Shown here piece after piece: positions 6,417 to 61,185 of a stretch of 64,000 nt of DNA. How positions within the stretch are numbered: the stretch's first letter is position 1; every line of letters starts with the position of its first letter. This DNA is from a virus: positions 54,219-118,218 of the IMG/VR virus record IMGVR_UViG_3300045988_168611. One strand, written 5' to 3'. The notes beneath the pieces were generated by a model. The model was not told the origin of the DNA. It saw only the letters and a list, made by a program, of their open reading frames with translations, and made no database searches. A program made the translations under genes and the position numbers.

Positions 6417-6423
6417 CCCTTTC

Positions 6424-6431
6424 TGAATAAA
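6424..6431 (-). promoter_or_regulatory. TTTATTCA box abutting the SD of the vWA gene
   Basis: Minus-strand reading is cccgTTTATTCAGAAAGGGGtgacgATG. Confidence 0.5.
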
Positions 6432-6451
6432 CGGGAGCTATATGTGGTCGT

Positions 6452-6491
6452 GTCCGGCGTAGCCGAAGGAGAATGAAGTGCTACGCCGGAC
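6452..6491 (-). terminator. 11-bp hairpin downstream of the MoxR gene
   Basis: GTCCGGCGTAG (6452-6462) pairs with CTACGCCGGAC (6481-6491). Confidence 0.55.
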
Positions 6492-6506
6492 ACGATGTCT
6501 GTGAAC

Positions 6507-7757
6507 TCAGTCGATGCCCATGGCTGCGATGACCGTGTTGATCTTGAGCGCGACACCGTCGCTCAGATGCATGAGCGTGTCGCAGTTCTTCTTATGGAGT
6601 GCGTCACTCGACCACAAGACAATGAGATCGTTGATGTGGCTCTGTTCGAGCTTGTCGAGTCGTGCATTCAACGCCTGGATAATCACATGGTTGTCTTCGC
6701 GCTCGTACATAGCGAACACGAGGCAACCGGATGCGTCATTGTCGGTCATGGTTGCAACAACCTGGTTGACAGCATCAACGCTGGTCATCGCGGCCTTCTT
6801 GAGCTCGTTGTAGATGCGAGGCTTGACAACGCGCTGAGCATTGTTGTTACCCGTGCTGCCCTTGCTGAGCTCATCGCTGATGGCGCCCATCAGCAAGGTG
6901 GTGAACGAGGTGTTGCCGGTCATACCTTCGATGACCTCCTGGAGATAGGAGACATGTCGACCGTCTCGGGTCGTCGATGGAGTAGCCATGAGACTGGCAA
7001 TCTCTTCGAATGACAGCACGTTGAGATACTGCGACACACCGTCGATCGTACGCGGAGTAGCGAACGGTCGAATCTCTTCGGTTCCGTCGAAAAGGTCGAA
7101 GACGGACACCGTGGCGTTGTCGTCATCATCGTCGTCTTGACCATCTGCGACAGCCTGCTCGTTGGTGTTCTTGACGAACACCGTCTCAGGGTGCTTTTCG
7201 AGCACAGTTTTCACGCACGGGTGAAGGTTCTTGTCGAGAACCTCGATAAGCGTCGACGCGTCGGGCGCAACGTTGATGATGGCGAATCGGGAGACCGACG
7301 CGTCATCAAGGGCAGTCACGTTGCCCTTGTCATTACCCGCCACGATAATGCGCAGGTTCTTAGGTAGATCCTCGTTACCAATGCGACGCAGCGTCACAAG
7401 GGTGAGAGTTCCCGAAGTCACGTCAGACGTGGTTCGGTTGATCTCGTCAAGAAAGAGAATCGGCTGCTCGTTTGGGTTGTTCTTGGCGTAATTGATTGCC
7501 TGGGAGATGGTGTCATGTGGGAAGAACTTCTGGGACCAGATACCGGTCTTTTCGTCCAGAACAAGACGTGCGCCCGTCAGGTCAGCCTTGTCGGCCAACA
7601 GGTTGCACGGAAGCGTGAAGCACTTCGTGTTGGTGCGTCGTGCCACGTCTTCGACAAACGACGACTTGCCGATACCCGGCTCTCCCATGAGAGCAGGGAC
7701 ACGGTTAGCATCCAGTAGCTTGATCGTGGTGGTGACAAGCATCTCGTTGAATAGCAT
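6507..7757 (-). CDS. MoxR-like (AAA_5) AAA+ ATPase
   Basis: Walker A GEPGIGKSS and Walker B ILFLDEINR in a single AAA+ module, followed by an acidic poly-D insert. Confidence 0.8.
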   Translation of the reverse strand: MLFNEMLVTTTIKLLDANRVPALMGEPGIGKSSFVEDVARRTNTKCFTLPCNLLADKADLTGARLVLDEKTGIWSQKFFPHDTISQAINYAKNNPNEQPILFLDEINRTTSDVTSGTLTLVTLRRIGNEDLPKNLRIIVAGNDKGNVTALDDASVSRFAIINVAPDASTLIEVLDKNLHPCVKTVLEKHPETVFVKNTNEQAVADGQDDDDDDNATVSVFDLFDGTEEIRPFATPRTIDGVSQYLNVLSFEEIASLMATPSTTRDGRHVSYLQEVIEGMTGNTSFTTLLMGAISDELSKGSTGNNNAQRVVKPRIYNELKKAAMTSVDAVNQVVATMTDNDASGCLVFAMYEREDNHVIIQALNARLDKLEQSHINDLIVLWSSDALHKKNCDTLMHLSDGVALKINTVIAAMGID

Positions 7758-17789: not shown

Positions 17790-20700
17790 TTACTCTTGTT
17801 CCGGCTTTTGTTCTGGGATCGTATTCATCCAGTTGGACTCATACGCATCGCAGAACATCTGAGCATAAGTGTCCAGATCCAGTTGCTCGATGAGAGCGCG
17901 GCGCTGATCCTCGCTCAGACACATGAGATCCTCGTTGAGAACCATCATGTGCCAGGTAGGCTCGATACCGGTGATCTTGCGGATGGAAATATCCTGATCA
18001 ACCGGAGCCTGCTGGATGCTGTACTGATGCGCAGTCATTGCATCTGGCGCATAGCCGTTAGCGATCATGATCGCATTGGCGGTTGCGTCAGTGCGCACCA
18101 CAGGAGCGTCGCCGCGCTTCTTGCGAGACTGGGCCACTGTGGCGTTGACTTTCCAGGCTCCAGCAGCACGCAAAGAGACTGCGCCCTCGGTGCCTGGCTT
18201 GACAACGAACACTCGGTTGTAGTGCTGGAGCGCTCGCGGGTTGCGAGCAGCCAGCTCAGGAGAATCCTCCTGATCAGCCGGGATGGGATCAGCCGCGTAG
18301 TGGAAGGTGAGCATACCAGGGGATGCTGCGATCACGTTCTGGAAGAGAAGCAACGCTTCGACGCTGTCCTCCTGATGCGCAATAGCCGTCATGATGTCAC
18401 GCGCAGTATCTAGCTCAACTGGCTTGTTGATCAGCTCTGGATTCGTCACCGCGATAGCTCGTAGATACACAGCCATTGCTCGATCGAGAGCAGCGGGGTG
18501 CGCCAACGAGTTCGTGGGTGATGGCTTACGCCAACATGCCAGAGATGAGCCGGACGCGCTGAGAATCTTCGCATCCTGAGGTTTGGCAGTACCGTCTGCA
18601 TACGCAGGTGGCACAGCCAGCTCGATACGGTTGTTCGAGTCCTTGGAGACCAGAAGGAGCTCTTCGGGTTCAATCAAGACATGGATGCGCTCAGATTGCT
18701 CATCGAGCACTCGGTTGTTTGTCTCTAGGTCGATGTCTGCTGAGTACAGACCGTCGGTGTTCGTGGAGATGATGCGAGCACCTTCAAGAGTCTGAGCCTG
18801 TCCGATCATCCAGGAGAACAACTGGCCGATCAGCCTCATGGAGATGATCATGTTGTTCATGCGGATGGGCGAGCCTTCGAACTCAGTGTCACCTGCACCA
18901 GAAGCGCTGTTGAGCAGTAGCTTGACACCGCTTCGTTTGGAGCTGAACATGTCTCGCTCATCAGCAGTGATGGAGGGATCCTTCATCAGCTGACCGAATC
19001 GTTCTTTGTCGAGGTAGAGCTTGCCATAGCGGTCCTCACCCAACGCCTCGTTGTAAAACGCGGAGAGGTTGGTGAGCAGCAAGGGGTAGTACGACGAGAA
19101 GTCCTCGTGGACGGCCTTTGCGACCGATGTCATCGCGTACTTGGGATCAAGCTTGGTCGACCCGTCGCTACGCTTGACGAAGAGTTCCTTGTTGCGTACC
19201 GGTTTGAAGAACGCACCTCGCTCCGGCTTGGGCGACGACTTGCTCATCAAGACCTGTTGCCAAGGAATGACCTGCCCTCCCTGACTATCTGGCAGAGTGA
19301 CACGAATGCTCTTGCGGATGGCCATGGCTTGCTCTGGTTCGGGTAGATCCCGAACCTGGAGAGTGTCAATGACTGCGTCAATGAGATCTCGCAGAGCATT
19401 TGCCTCAGCGTTGTGATCCTTGAAAAGGATCATATTTGCCTCAGCACCATGGATGCCACCGGTTGAGAACGTCGCGAAACACGATGTCGGTGTACCGTCC
19501 GCTCGGAAGTAGGGGACGTTGGTGGCGCGCTTGGGGATTTCATTAAGCCTGTAGGCTCCGATGACCCCATCGCCGTCGACATTGTTACAGTCTGGATCCA
19601 GGCTGTAATCTTCCGCGTATGCCTTGCTTCCGTTGAAGTTCTTGCCTCGGATGCTCGCGTAGTATTCGTAGACTTCATTGAAAGCAGCGCGAGCACGGTT
19701 GTCTTCGATGTTCTCGTAGAAGAAGCTCTTGGCCAGTTCGAGAACGTCGAACTGTTCGATACCCAGTTCCTGGGCACGCTGCTTGGATGGATACATGAAC
19801 GACACCGTTTTGATGTCCTTCAGCCTCTCGTAGGGCGCGAGAACGCGCGCAACGAACTTGGCTGAGGTTGAGTCAGGGGTGAGGCGATCGCGTCTGACGC
19901 GGTTTGGTCGACAATCTGGCTTTGACTTGGAACCGTCGACAGCCTGATAGACAGTCTCAGGGTAATCGACCATGAGCGCATGCTTGAGGTCGAAACCACC
20001 TGAGTACGTTGGGTGATCAGCCAGATATGCCAGGTTGACGACATCGCTCACGTTGTAAGCGATAAGTTCAACCAGGTCATCGATTGTTTCGATGATCGAG
20101 TCATGCTTCAATCGATCAGATTCGAGGATCTGATAACCCAGCATGCCGAGTAGGCGCTTGAGGCCCACACGTTGCTGCTTCTCATTGAAGCGTGCGATGT
20201 CGAGGTGTCGGCCAGAATGCAGCATGGCCCGCCTGACCTTGTTGGCGGTTCCGTCCCAGCCCTTACCGTTAGCAACAGCAGAAGAGGTGAGGTACGACGG
20301 CATCTGGCGGATGTATTCATCCGTGAAGAGCGCGTCGTTGTGTCGACGGATCTCAGCGGCAGTGACAGGTGTGGTGCGCTGGAACGCAAGCTTGCATGTG
20401 TCCATCATCTCTTCGTAGATACGACGTTTTTCATCGTCTGTCGAGGCGAGCATGGCACGCTCATGGGCCTGGCGGACAGGCTCTTGAATGCTTTCCATGA
20501 CGCTTGCGAGATAGATGGCCATGAGGGTCGTATCGTAGTTGGCGGAGTTGTAGCCACACACGAACGGATGAGTCTCAGGATCGTAGTTCGGATCTGTGTC
20601 ACACACAGGTCGATACTCTCGCAGGTACGTGCTCTGGGAACGTGGGTCGTTCACAGAAGCTGCATCGCTGAGCCCAATGATGTGAGCCAGAGTGTGGTTG

Positions 20701-20981
20701 GCTTGCCACGTACTTAGGTTATGCAACCGTAGGATGGGGTTTTCGTCTGGCTTCCACAGGCGAGCCCATGCCGGATTGCGCTTGAGGATAGCCATGAGCA
20801 CCGTGTGGTGGTCCAGGTCGCGGCGACGCAGCGCATCACCAACGGGGGTGCCCACGTCGACGAGATAGAACACATTGAGAGCGCGGGTTTCACGGTCGAA
20901 GAAAGCGACGGTGAAGACGTTTGTCAGTGACTCGATGTCCCAGAAGACGAATCGAGCTTTTTTATAGGTGGTTCGCTTCAT
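17790..20981 (-). CDS. Family B DNA polymerase with 3'-5' exonuclease domain
   Basis: Exo I FWDIES, Exo II NSANYD, Exo III YNVSDV. Pol A DFSSYYPLLL, Pol B KLLLNSASGA, Pol C TNTDGL. Confidence 0.85.
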   Translation of the reverse strand: MKRTTYKKARFVFWDIESLTNVFTVAFFDRETRALNVFYLVDVGTPVGDALRRRDLDHHTVLMAILKRNPAWARLWKPDENPILRLHNLSTWQANHTLAHIIGLSDAASVNDPRSQSTYLREYRPVCDTDPNYDPETHPFVCGYNSANYDTTLMAIYLASVMESIQEPVRQAHERAMLASTDDEKRRIYEEMMDTCKLAFQRTTPVTAAEIRRHNDALFTDEYIRQMPSYLTSSAVANGKGWDGTANKVRRAMLHSGRHLDIARFNEKQQRVGLKRLLGMLGYQILESDRLKHDSIIETIDDLVELIAYNVSDVVNLAYLADHPTYSGGFDLKHALMVDYPETVYQAVDGSKSKPDCRPNRVRRDRLTPDSTSAKFVARVLAPYERLKDIKTVSFMYPSKQRAQELGIEQFDVLELAKSFFYENIEDNRARAAFNEVYEYYASIRGKNFNGSKAYAEDYSLDPDCNNVDGDGVIGAYRLNEIPKRATNVPYFRADGTPTSCFATFSTGGIHGAEANMILFKDHNAEANALRDLIDAVIDTLQVRDLPEPEQAMAIRKSIRVTLPDSQGGQVIPWQQVLMSKSSPKPERGAFFKPVRNKELFVKRSDGSTKLDPKYAMTSVAKAVHEDFSSYYPLLLTNLSAFYNEALGEDRYGKLYLDKERFGQLMKDPSITADERDMFSSKRSGVKLLLNSASGAGDTEFEGSPIRMNNMIISMRLIGQLFSWMIGQAQTLEGARIISTNTDGLYSADIDLETNNRVLDEQSERIHVLIEPEELLLVSKDSNNRIELAVPPAYADGTAKPQDAKILSASGSSLACWRKPSPTNSLAHPAALDRAMAVYLRAIAVTNPELINKPVELDTARDIMTAIAHQEDSVEALLLFQNVIAASPGMLTFHYAADPIPADQEDSPELAARNPRALQHYNRVFVVKPGTEGAVSLRAAGAWKVNATVAQSRKKRGDAPVVRTDATANAIMIANGYAPDAMTAHQYSIQQAPVDQDISIRKITGIEPTWHMMVLNEDLMCLSEDQRRALIEQLDLDTYAQMFCDAYESNWMNTIPEQKPEQE

Positions 20982-32775: not shown

Positions 32776-33029
32776 AAAGCGCCAGGTGGCTGCCAGCATC
32801 AACGCAGCATTGCCAGCGTCGAATGAAAAACCCCCGGACACAGGAGCCTGTGTCCGGGGGTTTGCGTGTTGCTGCTGTGGTCAACATGTATGTGGTTTCT
32901 GCTTCGGTTGAGGGACTGAATACGGTATAATGCTGTGGGCCTACGCACACTGACTACCTGCTCAGTTTTAGTACGTAGAAGCCAATCGATCAAGATCAAT
33001 GACAAGACCGAAAGAGAGGTGTGATCTCT

Positions 33030-34757
33030 ATGAAGATCCCTCGTCAATCCAACAAGCAGCTCATTCGACCTGGCTTGCGTCGGCTGCCTGTGATGGCAGC
33101 CCTGACTGTAGCGATGGGCGCATCTGTTGCAGTGATGCCGACTACCGCTGCAACCGCCGCGCCTGCCAGCGCAGAAAGTACTGCGAGCACTGCCGGGCTA
33201 CCGGCTGCTGTCGCAAGTGGCTACAAGATGACGTTCCACGATGAGTTCGACGGCGACAAGCTCGATACCTCTAAATGGGGTTATCAGTACGGCTGTTTCG
33301 ATCCTGCGCAGCGATCGCAAGCGCAGTACACCGACTCTCCCGATAACGTCTCTGTGCGAGATGGTTATCTGAATCTGACGGCCAGGTACTCGCCCATGAA
33401 GACCAAGTGGGACGGCTCGCAGATCGCGCGCACCTGCAAGGACGGCAGCACGACCTATGATGCCCCGTTCACGTCGGGCATGGTCACCACAAAAACAAAA
33501 GACGGCAAGGTGTTGTATGCCGCGCCAGGAACCGGCTTCTATGCCGAGGCGCGCGTCAAGCTTCCGACCGCACGTTCGTCCTGGTCTGCTTTCTGGGGTA
33601 CCGGTACCAAGGGTGGCTGGCCCGGTAACGGTGAGATCGACGTGTTCGAGTCCAAGGGCTACGACCCGAGCTTCTTGATGAGCAACATCCACACTCCCAG
33701 GGTCGGCAACCCCAAGAAGACCCAGCAACACCAGGGCATGATGAAGGGCGACACTGCGACTTCTCAGAGCGAGTTCCATACCTACGGTGTCTTGAAGACC
33801 GCTGATGCCATTGAGTTCTACTTCGATGGGAACATGACTCACCGCGTGAAGATGCAGGATATGAAGGGCGCGAGCAACCCCTTCGCGGATCCAGAGAACG
33901 GTCTGGTGTTGAAGCTCAACCAGATGGTGGGCGGCAGCTACTTGGCCAAGCACGACAACTGGTCGGATAAGACCTTTGTCGATGCAAGCAAGTACGCGGA
34001 TGACTACAAGAGCGCTGATGGCGCGGGTTCGACCATGTATGTCGACTACGTGCGTGTGTATGAGCCGAAAACCCAGGCAGATCAGCCTGCCCAGCCTGCT
34101 CCTGCCCCTGAGCAACCGACTCCGACGCCTGCTCCCGAGCAGCCCGCGCAGCCTTCTGAGCCTACGCCCACCCCTGCTCCAGAACAGCCTGCACCTGAGC
34201 AGCCAACTCAGCCTGAGACCCCGGCCCAGCCTGAACAACCTGCGGTTCCAGAAACGCCTGCTGCACCTGAGACTCCGGCTCAACCCGAGCAACCTTCTCA
34301 GCCAGAGACTCCTGCCCAGCCTGAGCAGCCCGCTCCTGCTCCGACTCCAGAGCAGCCAGCACCTACGCCTGCCCCTGAGCCCTCTCAGCCTGCGCCTGTG
34401 ACTCCGGCACCTGCGAAGCCCACCCCTGAGCAGCCTGTTCCGGCCAAGCCAACGCCTGCACCGGCGAAGCCAACTCCGGCCAAGCCTCAACCAGCACAGC
34501 CTGTTCCGTCTCAGCCGTCTCAGCCGTCCGATAACCAGACTGACCAGAACAGCCAGCAGTCTGGACAGGCAGAGCAGAACAGCCAGCGGTCTGAACAGGA
34601 GGGGCAGAGCAAGCAGACCAAGCCAGAGCAGCCCAAGAAGTCACAGAAGCCTAGTGCTGATCGTTTGGCGAACACGGGTATGACCTCGTGGTATCGCCCG
34701 ATCGTTGTCATGTGGCGAAGCTTCTGTGGCTGGATCACCAGCTGGTGGTTCTGGTGA
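33030..34757 (+). CDS. Secreted GH16 glycoside hydrolase with Pro-rich stalk and LANTG sorting-like signal
   Basis: Signal peptide with AAPASA. The GH16 catalytic motif GEIDVFE (ExDxxE). A ~190-aa PEQPA/PTPAP repeat stalk. C-terminal LANTG followed by a W-rich hydrophobic tail. Start at ATG 33030 follows AAAGAGAGG. Confidence 0.85.
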   Translation: MKIPRQSNKQLIRPGLRRLPVMAALTVAMGASVAVMPTTAATAAPASAESTASTAGLPAAVASGYKMTFHDEFDGDKLDTSKWGYQYGCFDPAQRSQAQYTDSPDNVSVRDGYLNLTARYSPMKTKWDGSQIARTCKDGSTTYDAPFTSGMVTTKTKDGKVLYAAPGTGFYAEARVKLPTARSSWSAFWGTGTKGGWPGNGEIDVFESKGYDPSFLMSNIHTPRVGNPKKTQQHQGMMKGDTATSQSEFHTYGVLKTADAIEFYFDGNMTHRVKMQDMKGASNPFADPENGLVLKLNQMVGGSYLAKHDNWSDKTFVDASKYADDYKSADGAGSTMYVDYVRVYEPKTQADQPAQPAPAPEQPTPTPAPEQPAQPSEPTPTPAPEQPAPEQPTQPETPAQPEQPAVPETPAAPETPAQPEQPSQPETPAQPEQPAPAPTPEQPAPTPAPEPSQPAPVTPAPAKPTPEQPVPAKPTPAPAKPTPAKPQPAQPVPSQPSQPSDNQTDQNSQQSGQAEQNSQRSEQEGQSKQTKPEQPKKSQKPSADRLANTGMTSWYRPIVVMWRSFCGWITSWWFW

Positions 34758-46756: not shown

Positions 46757-47132
46757 AGTAAGCTCCTATAAGTTTCTGTTTCCAGCTGGTCACAATCTAC
46801 GGCATGTCTCATAGAACCAGGGAAAGTGATCAATCTGTTTATCGGCGCTGCGAGCAGCGCCTTATTCAAACCCTTCAAGAAAGAGTAAAAGAGACAGTAA
46901 AGAACCGTAGAGAGATGCACGATATACTGGTAATCGAGCCGATTTATCGCGTTACTGCGTATATGTGTGTTACTATGGGTACTGCCTTCTCAGGCTCAGA
47001 CTGTGCGATCGTCCCAGTCAACCGTGCATCATGCGTTGACCTGTTGCGAGAAGGTTGTAGTGGTACCTGCAAGCAGGGACCACTAGCAGCAGGTCTGTTT
47101 TTTAGCTCAACAACAACAGAAAGCGAGGTACG

Positions 47133-49775
47133 ATGACTTCTCGTACGACTAAGCACAAGGGTCGCAAGGCTGTTGCTACTGCCGCGTTGATGGCGTTTGC
47201 TGGCGCGGCCCTCGTGGGTGCAAATCCCGCGTTTGCCGATAACGGCGGCTCTGGCGGTACCACCGGTGGCAACCTGGGTGCTGCCGGAAATTTGGGCATC
47301 CGCTACGCGTTTTTCGATGATGCTGTGGCGAACCCGCAGGGTGGCCAGGCTCTGGTTTCCCAGGGATGGGGCCAGGACAGTATCAACTGGTTCATGGATA
47401 AGGCCGGTATCACTGGTACCTACATGGCCAACCAGTTCCAGACTTCGTGTGGCGAGGCTCTGAACGAGGCTATCTCTCGTGGCCAGGCTGCTGGTGGATC
47501 CAACGTCACGGCTCGTGTGGTCGGCATCATGTATGCCACCAACAACGGCAACAACGGTGGCGCTGCTGCGCGCTCTGCGCAGTACTTCTACGACAAGGCC
47601 GAGGAATGGCGCACGGACGGCTACCCCGGCATGTACAACCGTTCGGCTGAGATCGCAGGTTTCATCTACAACCTTGCGCAGACCGGTGTCGGCAAGGCGT
47701 CTGGTTTGCCGAATGATGGCAACGCCTACGGTGAGCCGTATGTGTCCACTGCCTGTGTGGCCGTCAACAGTGAAGAGCCTGTGGGCATCTCCGCTCCGCC
47801 TCCGCCGCCTACCTACGACTTGACGGTGACGACCGATCATGCGTCGACCGTGACCGAGGCTGGCAGCACTGTGCCGGTCTACGACACGATCCATGCATCG
47901 CGTGGTGGCAAGGGCGTGGATGAGAACGTCGACGCTGAGGTTGTTCTGACCTACGAAGGCCCTGAGGGCAACAAGTCTGTGACCAAGACTGTGTCGATCG
48001 CTAACAACGGTGATACGAAGTCGCCTGAGTTCACTCCGGCTGACTTTGGCTGGACCTCGTGGCCTGCCACCGGCGAGGGCAAGAGCTTCTGGTTCGACGT
48101 GAAGGTCGCCAAGCAGGGCAACATGAACGAAGCGGTGGACACCGCCGATCGTGAGCCGTCTGAGTCTTGGACGGTTAAGCCCAAGAACCCTGTGAAGGTT
48201 CTGACCAACGGTGAAACCGGTTCTGGTCTGACCGAGAAGGACGTGTTGGCCAACAACATGTTCTACAACGCGAACATCACGGCCCACTCCAACGGTTACG
48301 CCTCGCAGCTGACCATCACTGATACGGTGAACACCGCCGATGTCACGATCGGTGGTAAGGATGCAGACGACGCTGGTCGCGTGCAGGTGCTCGGCCCCGA
48401 TGGTCAGCGCATTAAGGCTGATGTCACCATTGATCGTTCGATCGAGGGCAAGGTTGTCATCTCCGGTACTGTGAAGGACATGGAGAAGCAGGGCAACTAC
48501 ACCCTGATGGTTCCGACCTACACGAAGGCGACTGGTGCTGACTACCGTATCCCGGATGACTCCAAGGTGTGCTACACCGAGGCCCAGGATCACTGCCTGG
48601 CTGGTAACTCTGCTGAGACCGGCAAGGTGACCCCGGATCCTGACAAGGTGTGGACTGCTGATGAGACCGAGGCGCGTACGACTGCTGACCCCGAGCGCAC
48701 GAACCAGAAGGGTGTGGACCAGAAGTCCTTCCTGCCCGGTGACAAGGTCTCGGCTGTGGTCAACGATCACATCGCCGCGTACCTCCAGTACGGCCTCGAA
48801 GAGTACAGCATCACTGATGACTGGTCGGATGGCCTGACCTACGTCACGATGGACGGTGCTCCGAAGGTCTACTTCCAGGGCAACGATGTCACGGATCTGT
48901 TCGAGATCACCAACGACATCGAGAAGGGTGTGACCACCGCGAAGGCGAAGCCTGAGTTCCTGGCCAAGACTGCTCGTATGACTGAGCCCGGTGAGGTCAA
49001 GCTGGTTATTTCTGGTCAGTTCCGTCGTGACTACGACACGGACGGGGAGACGAAGCAGCTTATCAACAAGGGTTCTGTCACGTGGAACAACGAGTCTAAG
49101 GTCACCAATGAGCCGCCTATCTTCACGGTGACTCCCAAGCCCGCGATCGACGTGGAGAAGTTCACGCTGTCTGAGGGTCTTGAGGCTGGTGACCGCGACG
49201 AGGCCGATAACGCTCTGACTCTCGCGTCTGCGAAGGACGAGACTCAGATCGGCTTCCTGGTGAAGAACACCGGCGAGGCTGACCTCGTGAACGTCTCGCT
49301 CACCGATGCGACGCATGAGGGCACCACCGGTAACGTCACCGGTATCGTTTGTGAGATTCCGGCTGAGCAGGCTGCTGCTGATCCGGCGAATGCCGGTGTG
49401 ACCGGTGGCGCGACTGCGCAGACTGTGAAGGTTGCTGGTGACAAGATCGGTACCCTGAAGGTCGGTCAGTCTGTGTCCTGTGTCGGTACTCTGACCGGCG
49501 TTGAAGAGGGCACGCTGCACTCTGACACTGCCACTGTGGTTGGCGAGTCCATCCACAACGGGAAGAAGGTCTCTGACTCTGACGACTGGCACGCGAAGGT
49601 GGACTCTCCTGAGCAGCCCGCTCCGAAGGGCGCTGTGACCGGTGAGGCCGCAGGTGCAAACACTGGTCTGCTGGGCGTTCTCGGCGCTCTGATGGCCGCG
49701 ATCGGTCTGGGTGGCGGCGCTACTTACCTGAACAAGGCGCGCCGCAACAAGGCTCAGGTTGCCGTGAAGCACTGA
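47133..49775 (+). CDS. Large secreted surface protein (880 aa) with C-terminal sorting-type signal
   Basis: Signal peptide ends ANPAFA. Beta-rich repeats. The C-terminus is KGAVTGEAAGANTG, then the TM segment LLGVLGALMAAIGLGGGA, then the basic tail KARRNK. Confidence 0.8.
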   Translation: MTSRTTKHKGRKAVATAALMAFAGAALVGANPAFADNGGSGGTTGGNLGAAGNLGIRYAFFDDAVANPQGGQALVSQGWGQDSINWFMDKAGITGTYMANQFQTSCGEALNEAISRGQAAGGSNVTARVVGIMYATNNGNNGGAAARSAQYFYDKAEEWRTDGYPGMYNRSAEIAGFIYNLAQTGVGKASGLPNDGNAYGEPYVSTACVAVNSEEPVGISAPPPPPTYDLTVTTDHASTVTEAGSTVPVYDTIHASRGGKGVDENVDAEVVLTYEGPEGNKSVTKTVSIANNGDTKSPEFTPADFGWTSWPATGEGKSFWFDVKVAKQGNMNEAVDTADREPSESWTVKPKNPVKVLTNGETGSGLTEKDVLANNMFYNANITAHSNGYASQLTITDTVNTADVTIGGKDADDAGRVQVLGPDGQRIKADVTIDRSIEGKVVISGTVKDMEKQGNYTLMVPTYTKATGADYRIPDDSKVCYTEAQDHCLAGNSAETGKVTPDPDKVWTADETEARTTADPERTNQKGVDQKSFLPGDKVSAVVNDHIAAYLQYGLEEYSITDDWSDGLTYVTMDGAPKVYFQGNDVTDLFEITNDIEKGVTTAKAKPEFLAKTARMTEPGEVKLVISGQFRRDYDTDGETKQLINKGSVTWNNESKVTNEPPIFTVTPKPAIDVEKFTLSEGLEAGDRDEADNALTLASAKDETQIGFLVKNTGEADLVNVSLTDATHEGTTGNVTGIVCEIPAEQAAADPANAGVTGGATAQTVKVAGDKIGTLKVGQSVSCVGTLTGVEEGTLHSDTATVVGESIHNGKKVSDSDDWHAKVDSPEQPAPKGAVTGEAAGANTGLLGVLGALMAAIGLGGGATYLNKARRNKAQVAVKH

Positions 49776-49813
49776 TGTGCTAATATGGTCACTGTTCTGA
49801 GAAGGTGATCAGT

Positions 49814-49864
49814 ACGTAACCCCCGTGGTAGCTCTTCGCTGCTGCGGGGGTTACGTGTATTTTG
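49814..49864 (+). terminator. Terminator of the surface-protein gene
   Basis: ACGTAACCCCCG (49814-49825) pairs with CGGGGGTTACGT (49845-49856), followed by GTATTTTG. Confidence 0.65.
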
Positions 49865-49941
49865 CGCATGGATGGACAGTGCCATATGTAGTAGAATGGC
49901 TCGTGTACCAGTAGAATCGCCTAAGAAAAGAGGTCTTATTG

Positions 49942-50643
49942 ATGACTGTCCCTGTGATTATGATGCCTGATGTTGACGCCGTTCCTGCTCTGATCGATCG
50001 CCGTGATGTGCCTACCTCGTTGGTCGGTTTCGTCGGTCTCAAGCGATCGGGCAAAGACACTGCTGCGCAGGGTCTTATTGCACGAGGTTGGAAGCGTATG
50101 GCGTTTGCCGATCCGCTCAAAGAGATGAGCATGAAGCTACGCGGCGTGTGGGTCGAAGTGCCAGAAGAAGCGCGTCTTGATAGCACTATTACCGTGGTGG
50201 GCGGTTTCGCCAAGTATCACGAGGTGGTCGACGCTCTGGGTATGGAGAAGGCGAAGGATCTCGTGCCTGATGTGCGCACTGTGCTCCAAACGCTGGGCAC
50301 GGACTGCGTGCGCGACACACTGGGCGAGCGAACGTGGACGGACCTGACCGGCCAGCGCGTCCAGGAAGAGCTCGCTCGTGGTGAAGCTGTGGCGCTCACT
50401 GATGTCCGGTTTGATGAAGAGTTTAACCTCGTGCATGATCTCGGAGGCATCGTCATTGGCGTGTGGCGAGGGGATCAGGATTCCCTCGATCGAGCACTGG
50501 TTGACGCATCTGTCGGGGCGCTGGGTGCTGATCACGTGTCGGAAACCAACGCGTACAGCCTGTTGCAGCGTGCCGATGTCGTGATCTGCAACTGTGGGTC
50601 TGTTGATGATCTGCATCGTGCTGTCTGGGACATTGTTGGCTAA
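49942..50643 (+). CDS. P-loop protein resembling phage deoxynucleoside monophosphate kinase
   Basis: GFVGLKRSGKDT Walker A followed by FADPLK, as in dNMP-kinase-like phage proteins. ATG 49942 follows AAAAGAGG. Confidence 0.5.
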   Translation: MTVPVIMMPDVDAVPALIDRRDVPTSLVGFVGLKRSGKDTAAQGLIARGWKRMAFADPLKEMSMKLRGVWVEVPEEARLDSTITVVGGFAKYHEVVDALGMEKAKDLVPDVRTVLQTLGTDCVRDTLGERTWTDLTGQRVQEELARGEAVALTDVRFDEEFNLVHDLGGIVIGVWRGDQDSLDRALVDASVGALGADHVSETNAYSLLQRADVVICNCGSVDDLHRAVWDIVG

Positions 50644-50667
50644 TAGTTGGTCCCAGCACTGCGCATG

Positions 50668-50791
50668 TGGCGCTTATCTGGTCATAACGTGACCTGGTAA
50701 GCGCCGTTTTGCTTGATGTATGAGGCGAATGGGTGTATCATGGCCTATAGATGACCAGATAAGAACCACTCGTCATCTGGTTATGTGGTCC
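50668..50791. promoter_or_regulatory. Two CCAGATAAG-type palindromes flanking the presumed promoter of the RHH-ParM-sortase operon (parC-like or operator)
   Basis: GGCGCTTATCTGGTCA-n5-TGACCTGGTAAGCGCC spans 50669-50705 and is followed by GTTTTG, so it may also terminate the upstream gene. ACCAGATAAG...ATCTGGTTAT spans 50753-50785. Confidence 0.45.
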
Positions 50792-50821
50792 ACTATCAAG
50801 ATCGAGAAGAGAGAGGTGTTT

Positions 50822-51280
50822 ATGCCTAAGCGTTTCACTGGGTCTGTCCCACGCCCGACGGCGCGCCGTTTCCGGGTCTCTGTGCCCGATGCTGATGAGT
50901 CTGTGCTGGCTTGGATCGGCGCGCAGTCGGATCTCAGCGCGTCTGTGCGCAGCCTGATCCGAGAGGCGATCGAGCGACACGGGTACCGTGACGCGACGTG
51001 CTATCCGGTGGTTCAGCAGCCGCGTCGAGGCCGTCCGCCTAAATCAACAGAGCAGCTTACAGAACAGGCAGAACAGCTTGAGACTGTCGACGGTCACCCG
51101 ATCGCTCAGTCGATCGGCATACTGATGCCGAAGCCGGAGCTGGATCACGAGCTTCTCATGGTTCCTGCGTCGCATGAAGATGTCACCGATGAGCCTGAGA
51201 TTCTTGATGATTCTGACGGTTCCGATGATGCTGTCAACCCCCTGAACGATATGGAAGATGTGCTTGGCGCACTGCGTTGA
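50822..51280 (+). CDS. Putative ribbon-helix-helix DNA-binding protein with acidic tail (ParR/CopG-like adaptor candidate)
   Basis: RRFRVSVPDADESVLAWIGAQSDLSASVRSLIREAIERHG fits a beta-strand/helix/helix RHH pattern. Sits immediately upstream of the ParM-like gene. Start at ATG 50822 follows GAGAGAGG. Confidence 0.5.
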   Translation: MPKRFTGSVPRPTARRFRVSVPDADESVLAWIGAQSDLSASVRSLIREAIERHGYRDATCYPVVQQPRRGRPPKSTEQLTEQAEQLETVDGHPIAQSIGILMPKPELDHELLMVPASHEDVTDEPEILDDSDGSDDAVNPLNDMEDVLGALR

Positions 51281-51309
51281 GTCCAGACAACAAAGAAAGT
51301 GAGTAACCT

Positions 51310-52635
51310 ATGACTTCTGCAATCCCTGCCTCTCTGAACACGATGTCGCTTCTTGGCGGTATCGATGTCGGTAACGGCTACGTTAAGGGTCTGGTGCGGG
51401 GGACGCGCACCGATAAGGCTGGTAAGCCTGTGATCGACACGATCGATCTCCCCAGCGGCGTGACGCGGGTGACTCGGCCTAACTCTCTACCAAAGGAGGA
51501 TACTGAGGCCGAAGACGTGTGCGCCAATGATCTGTATAACCACCTCGATGTGTCGTTCTCGTCCTCAATGGTCTCAAACTCGTACCGACACCTGTTTGGT
51601 AAGCGAGCTCTGACCGCGAACGGCGCGTTCGATGAGTTCAACGTTGTGGGCAGACGGTCGAAGGCCGAGCAGGAGCTATCTAAGGTGCTGATCCTTGGTG
51701 TGTTCGCTGCGAAGGCTCTGCGTGACTATGTGGCTGTTGCTAAGACGCTGCCTGTATCGGAGCTTATTGTCGACGCGTGCGTGGCTGTTGCTCTGCCGAT
51801 CGATGAGTACATGCGTCACCGCACCAGCTACAGTGCTGAGTTCATGAACGGTACGCACCTGGTCACCGTGCACAACTTCGAGACGCCTGTCGTGGTGCGC
51901 ATTACGTTCCGTGATGTGGTGGTGATGGCCGAAGGTGCATCTGCGCAGTGGGCCATCACGGAGAAGGGTGTGCCGCTCATGCAAGCGATGCTTGCTGACG
52001 TGCGTTCTCGTGGTCTCGCACTGGAAGGTGTCACGGCAGAAGATGTCCTGGCAGCTCGTAATACGATCGGTATCGACATCGGTGAGGGAACGATTAACTT
52101 CCCGGTGTTTACCAACGGCAAGTTCAACGCAGACGCCTCTGTGACGTTCGGTGAAGGCTACGGCACTGTGCTGACCCGTGCGTTGGAGTCCATGGACGCG
52201 GAAGGCTTCCACACTGGTTTCACCAGCCGGAAGCAGCTGGCGGATTTCCTCCAGCGTGAGCCCTCGCCGTTGAAGTGGCACTTCTACAACAAGGTGCGTG
52301 CCTACGTCGACCGTGAGATCGAGTTCTTCGCACGAGCTGCGTCTGACCAGTTCGGTCGTGTTCTCGGCGTTGTTGGTGCGACGACTGAGGTCGTATTCGT
52401 GTTCGGCGGTGGCTCTGGCCCTGTGAAGGACGCGCTGTATCCGCTCTTGCTGAGCAAGGTGGCAGAAATGAACACCGAGGACGCAATGCCGGTCTTGTAC
52501 TTGGATGCGTCTTATTCTCGCTCTCTGAACCGTGAGGGTCTGTACTCGATCGCTCAGGCGTCTGCTGCGCAGTCCAGCAAGGCTGCGAAGCCTGCTAAGC
52601 GTGCTGCCAAGAACAGCACGAAGAACGGAGAGTGA
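51310..52635 (+). CDS. ParM/StbA-like actin-fold ATPase
   Basis: Phosphate-1 GGIDVGNGYVKG, phosphate-2 IGIDIGEGTINF and adenosine motif VFVFGGGSG. Confidence 0.75.
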   Translation: MTSAIPASLNTMSLLGGIDVGNGYVKGLVRGTRTDKAGKPVIDTIDLPSGVTRVTRPNSLPKEDTEAEDVCANDLYNHLDVSFSSSMVSNSYRHLFGKRALTANGAFDEFNVVGRRSKAEQELSKVLILGVFAAKALRDYVAVAKTLPVSELIVDACVAVALPIDEYMRHRTSYSAEFMNGTHLVTVHNFETPVVVRITFRDVVVMAEGASAQWAITEKGVPLMQAMLADVRSRGLALEGVTAEDVLAARNTIGIDIGEGTINFPVFTNGKFNADASVTFGEGYGTVLTRALESMDAEGFHTGFTSRKQLADFLQREPSPLKWHFYNKVRAYVDREIEFFARAASDQFGRVLGVVGATTEVVFVFGGGSGPVKDALYPLLLSKVAEMNTEDAMPVLYLDASYSRSLNREGLYSIAQASAAQSSKAAKPAKRAAKNSTKNGE

Positions 52636-52639
52636 GCAG

Positions 52640-53851
52640 ATGTCTACGTCTACGAGTCCATGGGATGATGCTTTGCGCCGTTACAGCGCGCGCGAGCACA
52701 CGCATGATGACATCGTGACTGAGTCTGGTGTGGCGGCAGCTGATGTGACAGCTGCCGCCACCGGCGCTGCTCTGCCTAGTTTCGATGACATCGTGAATGG
52801 CGATGGGACTAGCCCTGACAAGACCGAGTCTTTGGTCGTTCCATCGAGTCTCGATGAGGTGCTGCACGATGCTGGGGTTGCCCACGGTAAGCAAGGCACG
52901 CAGAACCCGAAGAACAAGCGGAGCAAATGGCGCGCTGCTCTGACAGCGATCGTGTGGCTTATCGTCACGAGTCTCATCTGTGGCGGTCTTTACCTGATCT
53001 ATCGCGCACATGATGAGGCTCAGGTCGAGGAAGAGCTTCCGGTGCCTGCTCAGACATATCAGGATGAGGAAATCTCTACTGCGCCTGTTGAGGCTACTGA
53101 TGATGTGCTCACCCATGAGTGGCCGGTCGTGAACGCGGATTCGGACCAAGGCTCGAACACGTGGGAGATTAACACTGAGGATTACAGGATTAGCACGATG
53201 TCGGTTGCTCGTATGGCTCCTGGGTCTGTGTTCATCCCGGAGTCCGGCATCTACATGGAGCTTCAGGGGTCTGATTCGTTCGAGGCGTCAAATTACGGTG
53301 ATCTTCAGACGATCCATGTGCCGACTAACGTGCACCGAGGTGTTTGGTACTCAGCTGGAGCGCCTCTCACCGCATCCGATACTGGAGTTCTCACCGGCGT
53401 TCGTCCGGGGTTTGATACACCACAGTCTTCTCGTGCTGTCTCACCCGCTTCGTCCCCCTCCCTGTCTTCTTCCGATACCGTGCAGTCGGGAACACAAACA
53501 AGCTCATCACGCGCAGTGAGTATGACGGGTGGCGAGGGAACGACGTTCATCGCCTCCCATGTGGCGTGGACAAAACGGCATCGTGGGGCTCTGTACACCA
53601 TGGCGACGGATGTCTCTCAGAATGAGTTGATCTGGGTGAAAGGCTTTGATGGATCGCTGTCCACGTGGCGCGTGAGCGGCATGTGGGTGGCTGAGCATCA
53701 GGCGTTCCCGGAGGACTATTTCAGCGCTACTGGTCCGCGTCGGTTGGTGCTGACGACCTGTGGTGGCCGTGTGAACAGCTACGGTTACTACCAGCAGAAC
53801 GTGTTTCTGGTGGCAGAGCCTGTGGCTTTGGAATCAGCGATGCAGCAGTGA
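52640..53851 (+). CDS. Membrane-anchored sortase-like transpeptidase (actinobacterial class E/F type)
   Basis: TM segment ALTAIVWLIVTSLICGGLYLIY. The catalytic-domain pattern is VGVWYS..., FIASHV (His) and RLVLTTCGG (TxxTC Cys) ...NVFLVAEP. A Ser-rich insert lies between the WY and His regions. The start is 4 nt after the ParM stop. Confidence 0.65.
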   Translation: MSTSTSPWDDALRRYSAREHTHDDIVTESGVAAADVTAAATGAALPSFDDIVNGDGTSPDKTESLVVPSSLDEVLHDAGVAHGKQGTQNPKNKRSKWRAALTAIVWLIVTSLICGGLYLIYRAHDEAQVEEELPVPAQTYQDEEISTAPVEATDDVLTHEWPVVNADSDQGSNTWEINTEDYRISTMSVARMAPGSVFIPESGIYMELQGSDSFEASNYGDLQTIHVPTNVHRGVWYSAGAPLTASDTGVLTGVRPGFDTPQSSRAVSPASSPSLSSSDTVQSGTQTSSSRAVSMTGGEGTTFIASHVAWTKRHRGALYTMATDVSQNELIWVKGFDGSLSTWRVSGMWVAEHQAFPEDYFSATGPRRLVLTTCGGRVNSYGYYQQNVFLVAEPVALESAMQQ

Positions 53852-53865
53852 TCGCTGTGTAAAGC

Positions 53866-53902
53866 AATACCCCGTAGCAGCGTAATGCTGCTACGGGGTA
53901 TT
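53866..53902. terminator. Bidirectional 16-bp hairpin between the convergent sortase and ssb genes
   Basis: AATACCCCGTAGCAGC (53866-53881) pairs with GCTGCTACGGGGTATT (53887-53902). Confidence 0.7.
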
Positions 53903-53959
53903 GGTGTTGTTTGTGAATATTCAGTTGTGATTGTTGATCAGAATCCTACCATGTTCTTC

Positions 53960-54526
53960 TCAGAAAGGCGGGTTACCCTGATCGAACCCGTCACCGAACG
54001 GATCGGACGCGTTGAGCGCGTCGTCCGCGAAGACGGGAGCCTGGGAAACAGGAGCGGCCTGAGAAACAGGCGCAGGAGCGGCAACCTGCTGGACGGGCGC
54101 AGCAACAGGCTGAGCAGCCTGAGCAGCGCGGTTCCGCGCATCCTGCTCGGCGGCGCGTCGGGCAAGACGTGCGGTGGTCACTTCACGCTTCTCATCCATC
54201 TGAACGTCATCGACGATGTTCTTTGGGATGTAGTGGGTTTCCCCGGTATCGGGATCCGTGTACACATCAGTAGTCGGGTGGTGCATGACGGTCACCAGGT
54301 CACCCTGATGAATCATGTCAAAGACGCCGTTTCCACGGTCGTTGGGGATGAAGCGCTCGACGGACACCGCGTCGGTTCCGCGCTCGCCGTTTCGCTTGGT
54401 GAAGTTCTGGTCGGCCAGAACGGTGAAGCGAACCGTGCGCGAACCGTCCTTGTTGGTGAAGAAACGCGGATCAGAGGCCAGGCGACCCTTGATAACAGCG
54501 AAGTTCTTGGGGTTGATGTTTGCCAT
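53960..54526 (-). CDS. ssb: Single-stranded DNA-binding protein (OB-fold, bacterial type)
   Basis: N-terminus MANINPKNFAVIKGRLASDPRFF, a Q/A/P-rich linker and the acidic tip DPFGDGFDQGNPPF. Start at ATG 54526 follows GAAGGAGAA. Confidence 0.85.
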   Translation of the reverse strand: MANINPKNFAVIKGRLASDPRFFTNKDGSRTVRFTVLADQNFTKRNGERGTDAVSVERFIPNDRGNGVFDMIHQGDLVTVMHHPTTDVYTDPDTGETHYIPKNIVDDVQMDEKREVTTARLARRAAEQDARNRAAQAAQPVAAPVQQVAAPAPVSQAAPVSQAPVFADDALNASDPFGDGFDQGNPPF

Positions 54527-54640
54527 GTTTATTTTCTCCTTCGTATGGCTAGGTGTAGATCGTCTGACGATCTCTATCAATAATTATCTTAGTACATCTG
54601 TGATGTACGGATTCTTAGTCTTCGAAGAAGACTCTTTCTC

Positions 54641-59403: not shown

Positions 59404-61185
59404 TCAGTTGTTGTTCTGACGACGACGCAGCAGAAGCGCAATGCCGCCAGCCGTGACGAGTGCAGTAGCACCCGCGATCATCAGGCCCATGTCGCTGGCA
59501 CCGGTCTGAGCTAGACCCGTGACAGCACCCTTGTGCTCAGTCGTGCTGTTACCCGGCTTGTCCGGGGTAGACGGAGCAGGTGGGGTCTGCTTAGAGGGCT
59601 GAGAAGGGGTTTCCTTGGGAGCCGGGGTCTCCTTGGGCTTCTCAGCGGGCTTTTCGGGAGTCGGAGTCACGCTGGGCTCCGAAGGCTTGGGATCCGGCGT
59701 AGGAGCAGGGTCCGTAGGCTCCGAGGGCTTCGAAGGCTCCGGCTTGGGCTTCTCAGGCGTAGACGGCTGAGACGGCTCAGGCTCAGGAGTGGGCGCAGGC
59801 GGCGTCACGGGCGGAGTACTGGGCTCCGGCGTGGGCTTCGGATCAGGGTTAGGAGTCGGCTGCTCCGGGGTCGGCTTGGGATCCGGCTTCGGGGTGTCCG
59901 GGGTCGGATCTGGCGTAGGAGCAGGCTTCTCGGGTTCCGGGGTGACAGGAGGCGTAGACGGCTCCGGCGTGGGAGTTGGCGCAGGCGGAGTCGACGGCTC
60001 GGGAGTCGGGTCCGGGGTCGGAGCGGGCTTGGGATCCTCAGGCGTCACCGGGGGAGTCACAGGAGGCTCAGACGGCTTGGGGTCCGGCGTAGGCTCAGGA
60101 GTGGGCGCAGGTGTCGGCGTGACCGGCTTCGCGTCCTCGCCAGTCTCGGCACCGGAAGAGCCCTTGGCTCGCCAAGTAGCAGTGGTGCTGACTTCCTTGT
60201 TGTTGACCGTCGCCTTGTTCGTCATCTCCTTCTCGGGAGTGACGACTACAACGCGGATACGAGCCATGTGGTCACCCTTCAGTTCGTTAGGGATCGTGAA
60301 GGTAGCAGACTTCCCGTCTGCACTCTTCGTGACCTTAGGCTTGGTAACACCGATGTTGTTCCAGTCGATGGGGTTGGCCCAGTCACCGTCGACAGTCGTC
60401 ATGGTGACACCGCCCTGGTAGGTGGCATCGTCACGAGTCTCCGTGATCGTGATGGTCTGGCCCGGCTGGCCCTGGGCCTGAACCCAGCATCCGAACTTGT
60501 AGAGGCCCTCTGGGGTCTTGCCATCAGACCAGCAGAACTTGCCGTCGCCCTTGGTGACGGGCTCACCGACGACGCCTCGGCCCAGACCGACGGTGTACTT
60601 CGTACCGTCGACGACGACGTTGGTCGTGGTCTTGCCGACGCTGGACTTGGTCAGCACGGCTTCGAGCTTGACGAAGCCGTTCTTGAGCGACCCATTGCCG
60701 CCAAGAGTCTGGGCGATGTCCTCGGTGACGACACACTTGAATGCGCCGTTCTCGGCGGTGCACTTACCGATCTTCTTCTCAGAGCCATCCAAGGCGGTGG
60801 CCTTGAGATCGACACTGTTGAATCCGTTCGGAACCTGGAGGCCGTCCCCGAGGCCCACGGAGAAGGTGGCACCCTTTTCGACCTTGTCACCCGTGTAATC
60901 GACGCGGATGTCGAGCGTGGCGTTCACGGAGTACTTGTCTCCGTAACGGCCCTTAACATCGGTCTTGACGATCTTGATGCCGCCCGTGGCGGTGGACGCA
61001 CCGGGCTCGGTGCCGATGATGCCGTTGTTGCCATCAGCAGACGCAGAAGTTGCGCCGTTGGTGTCAGCAGCGTTGTCGGTCCCGGTGGTAGCGGCCTGAG
61101 CAGCCACGGGGGCTGCGAAGAGAAGCGTGGTAGCGACCACAAGAGTGAGGCCGGACTTTCGCTTCTTGAAAATGTTGAGATTCAT
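59404..61185 (-). CDS. Cell-wall-anchored surface protein with LAQTG sorting signal and P/T-rich stalk
   Basis: Signal peptide ends PVAAQA. A beta-rich adhesin-like N-terminal half. A ~200-aa PTPEP/PKP repeat stalk. The C-terminus is KGAVTGLAQTG, a TM segment, then RRRQNNN. Confidence 0.8.
   Translation of the reverse strand: MNLNIFKKRKSGLTLVVATTLLFAAPVAAQAATTGTDNAADTNGATSASADGNNGIIGTEPGASTATGGIKIVKTDVKGRYGDKYSVNATLDIRVDYTGDKVEKGATFSVGLGDGLQVPNGFNSVDLKATALDGSEKKIGKCTAENGAFKCVVTEDIAQTLGGNGSLKNGFVKLEAVLTKSSVGKTTTNVVVDGTKYTVGLGRGVVGEPVTKGDGKFCWSDGKTPEGLYKFGCWVQAQGQPGQTITITETRDDATYQGGVTMTTVDGDWANPIDWNNIGVTKPKVTKSADGKSATFTIPNELKGDHMARIRVVVVTPEKEMTNKATVNNKEVSTTATWRAKGSSGAETGEDAKPVTPTPAPTPEPTPDPKPSEPPVTPPVTPEDPKPAPTPDPTPEPSTPPAPTPTPEPSTPPVTPEPEKPAPTPDPTPDTPKPDPKPTPEQPTPNPDPKPTPEPSTPPVTPPAPTPEPEPSQPSTPEKPKPEPSKPSEPTDPAPTPDPKPSEPSVTPTPEKPAEKPKETPAPKETPSQPSKQTPPAPSTPDKPGNSTTEHKGAVTGLAQTGASDMGLMIAGATALVTAGGIALLLRRRQNNN

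Follow-up and report, generated by a model that had tools for sequence, protein, structure and literature searches.

Structure of the operon

We analysed a 64,000-nucleotide stretch of viral DNA (the window), positions 54,219 to 118,218 of the IMG/VR record IMGVR_UViG_3300045988_168611. The window contains an operon of three genes encoding a small adaptor protein, an actin-like protein (ALP) and a membrane sortase. All three open reading frames (ORFs) are on the plus strand at the coordinates listed in Table 1. We consider it fairly probable that the operon combines two modules, an AlpAC-type pair and a sortase, which form a single block in both inheritance and transcription.

The adaptor and ALP genes are co-oriented, with a 29-nt gap between the stop codon of the former and the start codon of the latter. 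The ATG codon of the sortase gene lies 4 nt downstream of the TGA codon of the ALP gene and is preceded by GGAG, which confirms, on sequence, the tight coupling reported in a first-pass annotation of the window, whose gene identifications also hold. There is one promoter-like site upstream of the adaptor gene, and strong terminator-like hairpins are found at both ends of the unit. A scan for promoters and terminators found none between the ALP and sortase genes. In related viral loci, which form two phage clades, the gap between these two genes is exactly 4 nt (13 clade-1 loci) or they overlap by 4 nt (9 clade-2 loci), and this covers all 22 of the 22 phage loci measured. The constant spacing and the lack of a terminator between the genes suggest that they are co-transcribed.

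The actin-like protein and the adaptor

The ALP matches the Pfam family ALP_N (35.7 bits at a cut-off of 26.3, E 1.2e-8) and PHROG 691, annotated as 'partition protein' (E 4e-20). Residues D19 and G21 of the phosphate-1 motif, D256 and G258 of the phosphate-2 motif and G366-G368 of the adenosine motif are invariant in the 18-sequence family alignment, in agreement with the first-pass description of a ParM-like actin. No match to the solved ParM structures was obtained in sequence searches of the PDB with either the single ALP sequence or the family profile. The ALP of the Gordonia plasmid pGKT2 is 51% identical to that of the window (E 6e-142). It is listed as an alpC homologue, with the alpA gene first, by Donovan et al. 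(2015, PMC4446434), and the plasmid records matched by the ALP search are other AlpC homologues from the same list. The similarity of the window adaptor to that of pGKT2 is weak (35% identity over 40 aa, E 0.26), and the two are alike in architecture. Judged by these similarities, the adaptor-ALP pair is an AlpA/AlpC-type module, with the ALP assigned to the AlpC clade via the pGKT2 protein rather than Cg1890. The AlpAC part adds one more member to a kind already described. The adaptor-first order was correctly described in the first-pass annotation as different from that of parMRC, but it is not novel, as adaptor-first operons with repeats in the promoter have been published for the prophage CGP3 of Corynebacterium glutamicum and for pGKT2 (PMC4446434).

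The ATG start of the adaptor gene is preceded by a ribosome-binding site GAGAGAGG. The protein has no match in Pfam, NCBIfam or PHROG, and a PDB search with the adaptor profile also gave no match. Members of its family are encoded directly upstream of the ALP gene in most relatives. They consist of an N-terminal domain with a conserved RFRVSVP motif followed by two helices, a variable acidic linker, and a short acidic-hydrophobic C-terminal peptide of the D(V/I)ND(I/V)F..LR type. By its sequence features, this layout is the architecture of ParR and AlpA. The order strand-helix-helix is compatible with a ribbon-helix-helix (RHH) domain, and the single-sequence model, of low confidence (predicted local distance difference test, pLDDT, 43), has helices at residues 26-35 and 40-53. 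As neither the libraries nor the PDB gave a match, the RHH label of the first-pass annotation rests on this pattern and these two helices, and we treat the DNA-binding domain as putative. The acidic tail described there is real, and ends in the conserved peptide LNDMEDVLGALR.

The region upstream of the adaptor gene contains a promoter-like site TTGATG-17-TATCAT (50713-50741, promoter scan), inverted repeats including a hairpin (50669-50705), and three copies of an ATCTGGTYAT / ATGACCAGAT repeat (50676, 50751 and 50775). The exact motif ATCTGGTYAT has three copies in the entire 64 kb, and all three fall within 109 bp (50676-50784) around the promoter. Both phage clades keep the control region, the hairpin showing a compensatory change. 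Other relatives have iterated TGG(T/C)C-type motifs at the equivalent position upstream of the adaptor gene. This repeat-bearing region is a candidate adaptor-binding site, similar to alpS or parC, and a candidate operator.

The sortase

The third protein matches the Pfam family Sortase (31.0 bits at a cut-off of 26.6). An AlphaFold model covering residues 151-403 reaches pLDDT 79.5; the 50 PDB matches listed by Foldseek are all sortases. A PDB sequence search with the single protein gave no meaningful match. The candidate catalytic residues H307 and C374 are invariant in 146 of 146 and 150 of 150 relatives, respectively. In an alignment based on a weak match to SrtA (E 0.002, from a PDB search with the sortase family profile), the position of the SrtA catalytic arginine, at the start of strand beta-8, is occupied by N387 (window 53798-53800), and asparagine is present here in 143 of the 149 family members. 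Two conserved arginines, R367 and R368, are located just before the TC motif; one of these, or R377, might stand in for the catalytic arginine.

The NCBIfam model of class F (NF033748) gives a partial match of 37.6-39.6 bits, far below its cut-off of 166. Class F is still the best NCBIfam family for all 41 sortase family members tested, and relatives of the window protein carry class F names at NCBI. We refer to the protein as class-F-like. Class F sortases are common in Actinobacteria, their substrates and physiological roles being largely unknown (PMC13251363).

Residues 1-96 form a predicted cytoplasmic tail (window 52640-52927), followed by a hydrophobic transmembrane (TM) segment from approximately residue 99; the protein also has a disordered insert of 50 residues. 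Two islands in the tail, SPWD[DN]xxR[RQ]Y and [ST]FD[DE]I[VM], are kept between the phage clades, the rest being variable. The tails of sortases from plasmid-like relatives have a distinct N-terminal motif [FWY]T.PPS.L.G..F.

Candidate substrates

The first-pass annotation had overlooked the probable substrates of the sortase, encoded in the same island. The gene of an 880-aa adhesin-like protein is located two genes upstream of the operon. The protein ends with KGAVTGEAAGANTG, followed by a hydrophobic segment and KARRNK. Its match to the Pfam family AgI_II_C2 is just below the cut-off (26.5 bits at 27.1, E 9e-6), and there is a weak match to TIGR04226. The sorting signal is kept in 21 viral loci from both phage clades. 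The second candidate, a 593-aa protein, ends with KGAVTGLAQTG, a TM segment and RRRQNNN. It is kept in clade-1 relatives, and no homologue was detected within the flanks of clade-2 loci.

Both proteins have an N-terminal signal peptide, the motif KGAVTG, a hydrophobic segment and a basic tail. The pentapeptide is GAVTG, and not LPXTG or LAXTG. In the six reading frames of the window the pattern GA[VI]TG occurs just twice, both times at the sorting signals of these two unrelated secreted proteins. PDB sequence searches with the two proteins were uninformative. We also considered GANTG as a conserved motif and rejected it: clade 2 has GANTA, and the motif is absent from L071, L074, L076, L077 and L142 (numbers starting with L denote loci of relatives).

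The sortase subfamily co-occurs with xAxTG adhesins. In every relative with sufficient flanking sequence, an AgI/II-like protein with a sorting signal is encoded near the related sortase; this signal reads GAVTG in L071 and L074, VAVTG in L076, LAVTG in L077 and GAMTG in L142. The adhesin of L074, where the adhesin gene is followed directly by the sortase gene and no ALP gene is nearby, is 44% identical to the 880-aa protein over 660 aa. Since adhesins are found beside the sortase in all these relatives, they are its consistent genomic partner. Thus it is likely, from the gene neighbourhoods and the shared signal, that the sortase anchors KGAVTG adhesin-like proteins encoded by the element itself, rather than working with the actin.

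One more secreted protein of the window (33021-34757, plus strand) has a GH16 domain (Pfam, E 2.5e-12) and a long proline-rich linker. It ends with RLANTG and a hydrophobic stretch and lacks a basic tail; it may be anchored to the wall as a third such protein, or its signal may be degraded.

Conservation of the ALP-sortase linkage

Apart from the two phage clades, whose sortases are approximately 55% identical, the order adaptor-ALP-sortase recurs in six further lineages (L071, L073, L076, L077, L142, L143) with ALPs approximately 64% identical, so that the synteny which the first-pass annotation proposed to look for is indeed present. In L076, L077, L142 and L143, whose GC content is 62-69%, the block adjoins Tad-like pilus genes located 3' of it, namely two T2SSE ATPases, T2SSF and a prepilin peptidase. 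On the 5' side, the block in L076, L077 and L142 is preceded by genes of a ParA pair and of an AgI/II adhesin; L143 begins at the adaptor gene, and its 5' side is out of view. L142 is a contig of 150 kb, and among these elements one 150-kb contig has a coverage of approximately 1600x. As the synteny extends well beyond close relatives, the adjacency is not random packing. The comparison of sequences shows that the adaptor-ALP-sortase block has been kept for a long time.

On the other hand, the adjacency is dispensable. The adaptor and ALP genes occur without the sortase gene in four loci (L022, L023, L024, L078; ALPs 62-67% identical), without a linked sortase in 18 more distant viral loci (L051-L068), and without the sortase in two plasmid records, pGKT2 and the plasmid p5 of Rhodococcus sp. 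DN22. In the neighbour-joining tree of ALPs, the unlinked proteins are interspersed among the sortase-linked ones. The adhesin-sortase pair of L074 exists without an ALP. Separate occurrences of this kind, at unrelated loci, had been named in the first-pass annotation as evidence against a functional link between the two genes.

L060 is a special case among the distant loci. At 5022-7548 of this low-GC viral contig of 230 kb there are an ALP 40% identical to that of the window and, 540 nt downstream of it on the other strand, a class-A-like sortase with the motifs LASHH, TLITC and RGRIIV. This sortase is unrelated to the window protein, and the adjacency is probably an independent coincidence.

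The adaptor-ALP pairs of L023 (Sinomonas mesophila), L024 (Paenarthrobacter sp.) and L078, with ALPs 62-65% identical, are situated amid housekeeping genes (urease; dxr/rseP/ispG; LysR and isocitrate dehydrogenase) and no mobile-element genes are in view at these loci. This context suggests a chromosomal role for the ALP family in Micrococcaceae.

Genomic context

The window consists mostly of minus-strand phage-type replisome genes (polymerase, primase, helicase, clamp loader, RecJ-like nuclease and single-stranded DNA-binding protein, SSB) and contains five tRNA genes. A plus-strand island breaks into these replication genes (Table 1). The gene of the deoxynucleotide monophosphate kinase (dNMP kinase), placed between the adhesin gene and the operon, belongs to neither module. 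A direct repeat AGTAGAAT(G/C)GC, with two copies 20 nt apart (49890-49920), is located just upstream of the kinase gene and may be a promoter element. An ORF of 942 aa on the minus strand, antisense to the adhesin gene (46944-49772), was rejected as a composition artefact.

Table 1. Features of the island and of the second candidate substrate (window coordinates)
Feature	Position	Strand	Evidence
AgI/II-like adhesin, 880 aa, secreted, candidate sortase substrate	47133..49775	+	Signal peptide, C-terminal sorting signal
Terminator-like hairpin 3' of the adhesin gene	49813..49857	+	20-bp stem followed by a T-run
dNMP kinase	49942..50643	+	Pfam DNMK, E 4e-15; phrog_139, E 2e-35
Control region, candidate adaptor-binding site (alpS/parC-like) and operator	50667..50800	.	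Hairpin, promoter-like site, three repeats
Adaptor (AlpA/ParR-like), 152 aa	50822..51280	+	Small homologous ORF 5' of the ALP gene in most relatives
ALP (actin-like ATPase), 441 aa, AlpC clade of ParM-like proteins	51310..52635	+	ALP_N, phrog_691, actin motifs
Membrane sortase, class-F-like, 403 aa	52640..53851	+	Pfam Sortase, predicted fold, family alignment
Terminator-like hairpin closing the operon, convergent with the SSB gene	53865..53903	+	18-bp stem
SSB gene	53960-54580	-	Pfam
Second candidate substrate, 593 aa, secreted, proline-rich stalk	59404..61185	-	C-terminal sorting signal

A pooled scan of 48 window ORFs with no other annotation identified, for the pool rather than for single ORFs, an Lsr2-like protein, a glutaredoxin and an Rce1-like CAAX protease. 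The ORF at 4710-6416 (568 aa, minus strand) matches a family of HNH endonucleases. In relatives, a MazF-like gene is found just beyond the region corresponding to the window (L081, 14801-15493).

Nature of the element

The window probably belongs to a large uncultured phage-like element of oral Rothia. Its close relatives, with ALPs 85-99% identical, are IMG/VR viral contigs of approximately 105-126 kb. A scan of genome contigs for the sortase retrieved just two phage contigs, both binned in an 'Actinomyces' metagenome-assembled genome (MAG). Hundreds of near-identical sortase variants are present in metagenome assemblies, one of them labelled 'MAG TPA: Sortase [Herelleviridae sp.]', and one member of the 90% identity cluster of the ALP is labelled 'uncultured Rothia sp.'. 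Rothia, like Corynebacterium, is not known to have MreB.

Among 50,697 GenBank phage records there was no megablast match to the island and no tblastn match to the ALP, the sortase or the DNA polymerase. The polymerase (1063 aa, 17790-20981, minus strand) was searched at E <= 1e-5; its nearest relative seen, 32% identical, is encoded in the viral contig L055, which also has an ALP. No integrase or repressor and no confident virion gene was recognised in the approximately 91 kb examined out of 119 kb. The survey took in 48 ORFs of the window and approximately 27 kb beyond it; weak terminase-like P-loop matches were observed on a Lon-like protein of 933 aa. As no virion gene or integrase was recognised, the phage label and the lifestyle rest partly on classification by others: the phage identity comes from the IMG/VR listing, the 'Herelleviridae sp.' label of the sortase homologue and the phage-type replication genes.

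In the more distant loci L055 and L057, the ALP gene lies beside homologues of the same polymerase and primase, and near SSB. This context favours a role of the ALP in replication, whereas the plasmid-like relatives favour a role in partition. The first-pass annotation had taken the ALP as an argument for extrachromosomal persistence of the element. Such persistence is not established: the searches yielded neither a plasmid nor an isolate record of the element, and AlpC of CGP3 acts in viral DNA replication, not in partition (PMC4446434).

Possible mechanism and alternative explanations

These observations are consistent with the following scheme. A dimer of the adaptor would bind the ATCTGGTYAT repeats, which overlap its own promoter, and thereby limit its own expression. 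By analogy with ParR-ParM and AlpA-AlpC, its conserved C-terminal peptide would dock on ALP filaments, and the filaments would move or hold copies of the element DNA, either for plasmid-like inheritance or for placing replicating phage DNA. The sortase would cleave the unusual signal (G/L/V)A(V/I/M)TG of the AgI/II-like surface proteins of the element, and the cleaved adhesins would be linked to the host cell wall, altering adhesion or the surface of the carrier cell. The sortase gene would simply occupy the 3' end of the adaptor-ALP transcript, with no need for a physical link between the enzyme and the filament. This position would provide a low, steady, constitutive level of the sortase wherever the element is present. 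The independence of the two modules is supported by the adaptor-ALP pairs that lack a sortase and are interspersed with the linked copies in the ALP tree.

Several points weigh against this scheme. The DNA-binding fold of the adaptor is deduced from a sequence pattern. The asparagine in place of the catalytic arginine means that the activity of the sortase is not assured. The second xAxTG of both window substrates, GANTG in one and LAQTG in the other, could be the true site, cut by a sortase of the host. Sortases linked to ALPs have a cytoplasmic tail of 38-98 aa with short conserved motifs in 8 of the 8 lineages, and the tail is absent from the L074 sortase, which is adjacent to an adhesin and has no ALP. 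Finally, the adjacency persists at ALP identities down to approximately 64% and whole-protein sortase identities of approximately 31-35%, in phage-like and plasmid-like elements alike, and this could reflect selection beyond co-expression.

The last two points would agree with a direct link, in which the cytoplasmic tail of the sortase docks on ALP filaments. The filament with its DNA cargo could then be tethered to the membrane, or the filament could determine the site of the sortase and of adhesin anchoring, for instance, by a pilus or transfer apparatus. Adjacency with translational coupling, kept in the two phage clades and six further lineages, speaks for such a link, as do the conserved islands of the tails (SPWD..R.Y and FD[DE]I[VM] in phages; [FWY]T.PPS.L.G..F in plasmid-like elements) and the proposal of Donovan et al. 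that AlpC directs phage DNA to the membrane (PMC4446434). However, adaptor-ALP pairs free of the sortase persist, nested among the linked ones; the L050 sortase has a tail of 77 aa and no ALP; outside these islands the tails vary and are of low complexity; and shared ancestry of the block accounts for the synteny without any interaction. We consider a direct link unlikely. Its specific version, in which coupling through the conserved tail ties DNA positioning to the membrane site where the element anchors its own adhesins, seems to us quite doubtful. A weaker form of the latter would be an orthogonal GAVTG sortase-substrate system rewiring the surface of oral Rothia.

Another possibility, which we hold to be rather unlikely, is that the element is a large phage with a strictly lytic cycle. 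The adaptor and ALP would then support replication or placement of DNA, as in CGP3, and not inheritance, and the adhesins and sortase would modify the surface of the infected cell, for instance so that superinfection is prevented or cells clump. In favour of this are the replisome, tRNAs and homing endonucleases that the element encodes, the ALP loci next to polymerase and primase homologues (L055, L057), the lack of a plasmid or isolate-genome copy among the records found, and the AlpC precedent (PMC4446434). At the same time, 150-kb elements that have ParA and Tad-like genes carry this block as well, and ALP homologues are found on true plasmids. Moreover, transcription of the island runs counter to that of the replication genes, as is often the case for genes expressed in lysogeny, and a lysogeny module could reside in the approximately 28 kb that remain beyond those examined.

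The first-pass annotation left open whether the adjacency is a coincidence or a functional link. Phage accessory genes are often mosaic, and the dNMP kinase demonstrates that unrelated genes do enter the island. Still, coincidental packing, with no shared regulation or history, is very improbable, given that each of the 22 loci measured has either the 4-nt spacing or a 4-nt overlap, and that the adjacency recurs in six other lineages with ALPs approximately 64% identical. Of the two options, coincidence is thus displaced by wide synteny in favour of a shared block, and the direct link is retained as a competing explanation. We return to the two-module block as the preferred explanation.

We found no description of a phage-encoded sortase in the literature searched, nor of an element-borne class-F-like sortase with cognate non-canonical substrates that is recurrently joined to a partition operon. 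The class-F-like subfamily brings along candidate substrates with a distinctive (G/L/V)AxTG signal, so its specificity is directly testable. If the scheme is correct, the sortase-adhesin set of this abundant oral phage-like element would be a novel means by which a virus or a phage-plasmid changes the adhesion of its host. The adaptor-ALP pair widens the AlpAC family to phages, plasmid-like elements and chromosomes of Micrococcales, and the recurring ALP-sortase operon provides a concrete case for asking whether a bacterial actin communicates with cell-surface assembly.

Comparison with known systems

The closest counterpart is the AlpA-AlpC system (alpACS) of CGP3 (Donovan et al. 2015, PMC4446434; Forde et al. 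2017, PMC5539076). In both cases the adaptor gene comes first and the gene of the actin-like ATPase second, repeats are located in the promoter upstream of the adaptor gene, and a viral element is paired with an actinobacterial host. The repeats differ, being ATCTGGTYAT and TGG(T/C)C-type here and TTAAnnG in CGP3. Furthermore, the CGP3 paper makes no mention of a sortase, and the annotation around the pGKT2 genes includes none. Type II ParMRC systems (R1, pSK41) share with the window operon an actin-fold motor, an adaptor with a C-terminal motor-binding peptide, of the RHH type by prediction here, and repeats overlapping the promoter. However, in the classical order parC-parM-parR the motor precedes the adaptor, whereas here the adaptor precedes the motor.

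The sortase resembles class F sortases of Actinobacteria, as class F is its best-matching NCBIfam model, but differs from them in the score far below the cut-off, the disordered insert and the long cytoplasmic tail. SrtF of P. acnes uses LPXTG (PMC13251363), in contrast to the candidate signal GAVTG described here.

Further counterparts are dedicated sortase-substrate pairs and the adhesins of the aggregation substance type encoded by Gram-positive conjugative plasmids, such as PrgB of pCF10. The predicted wall-anchored AgI/II-like adhesin of the window resembles pCF10-type aggregation substances in being encoded on a mobile element, and in the relatives L076, L077 and L142 the adhesin gene adjoins genes of pilus- or secretion-type ATPases. 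Unlike the conjugative-plasmid adhesins, it is accompanied by its own class-F-like sortase, has the (G/L/V)AxTG signal instead of LPXTG, and is borne by a phage-like carrier.

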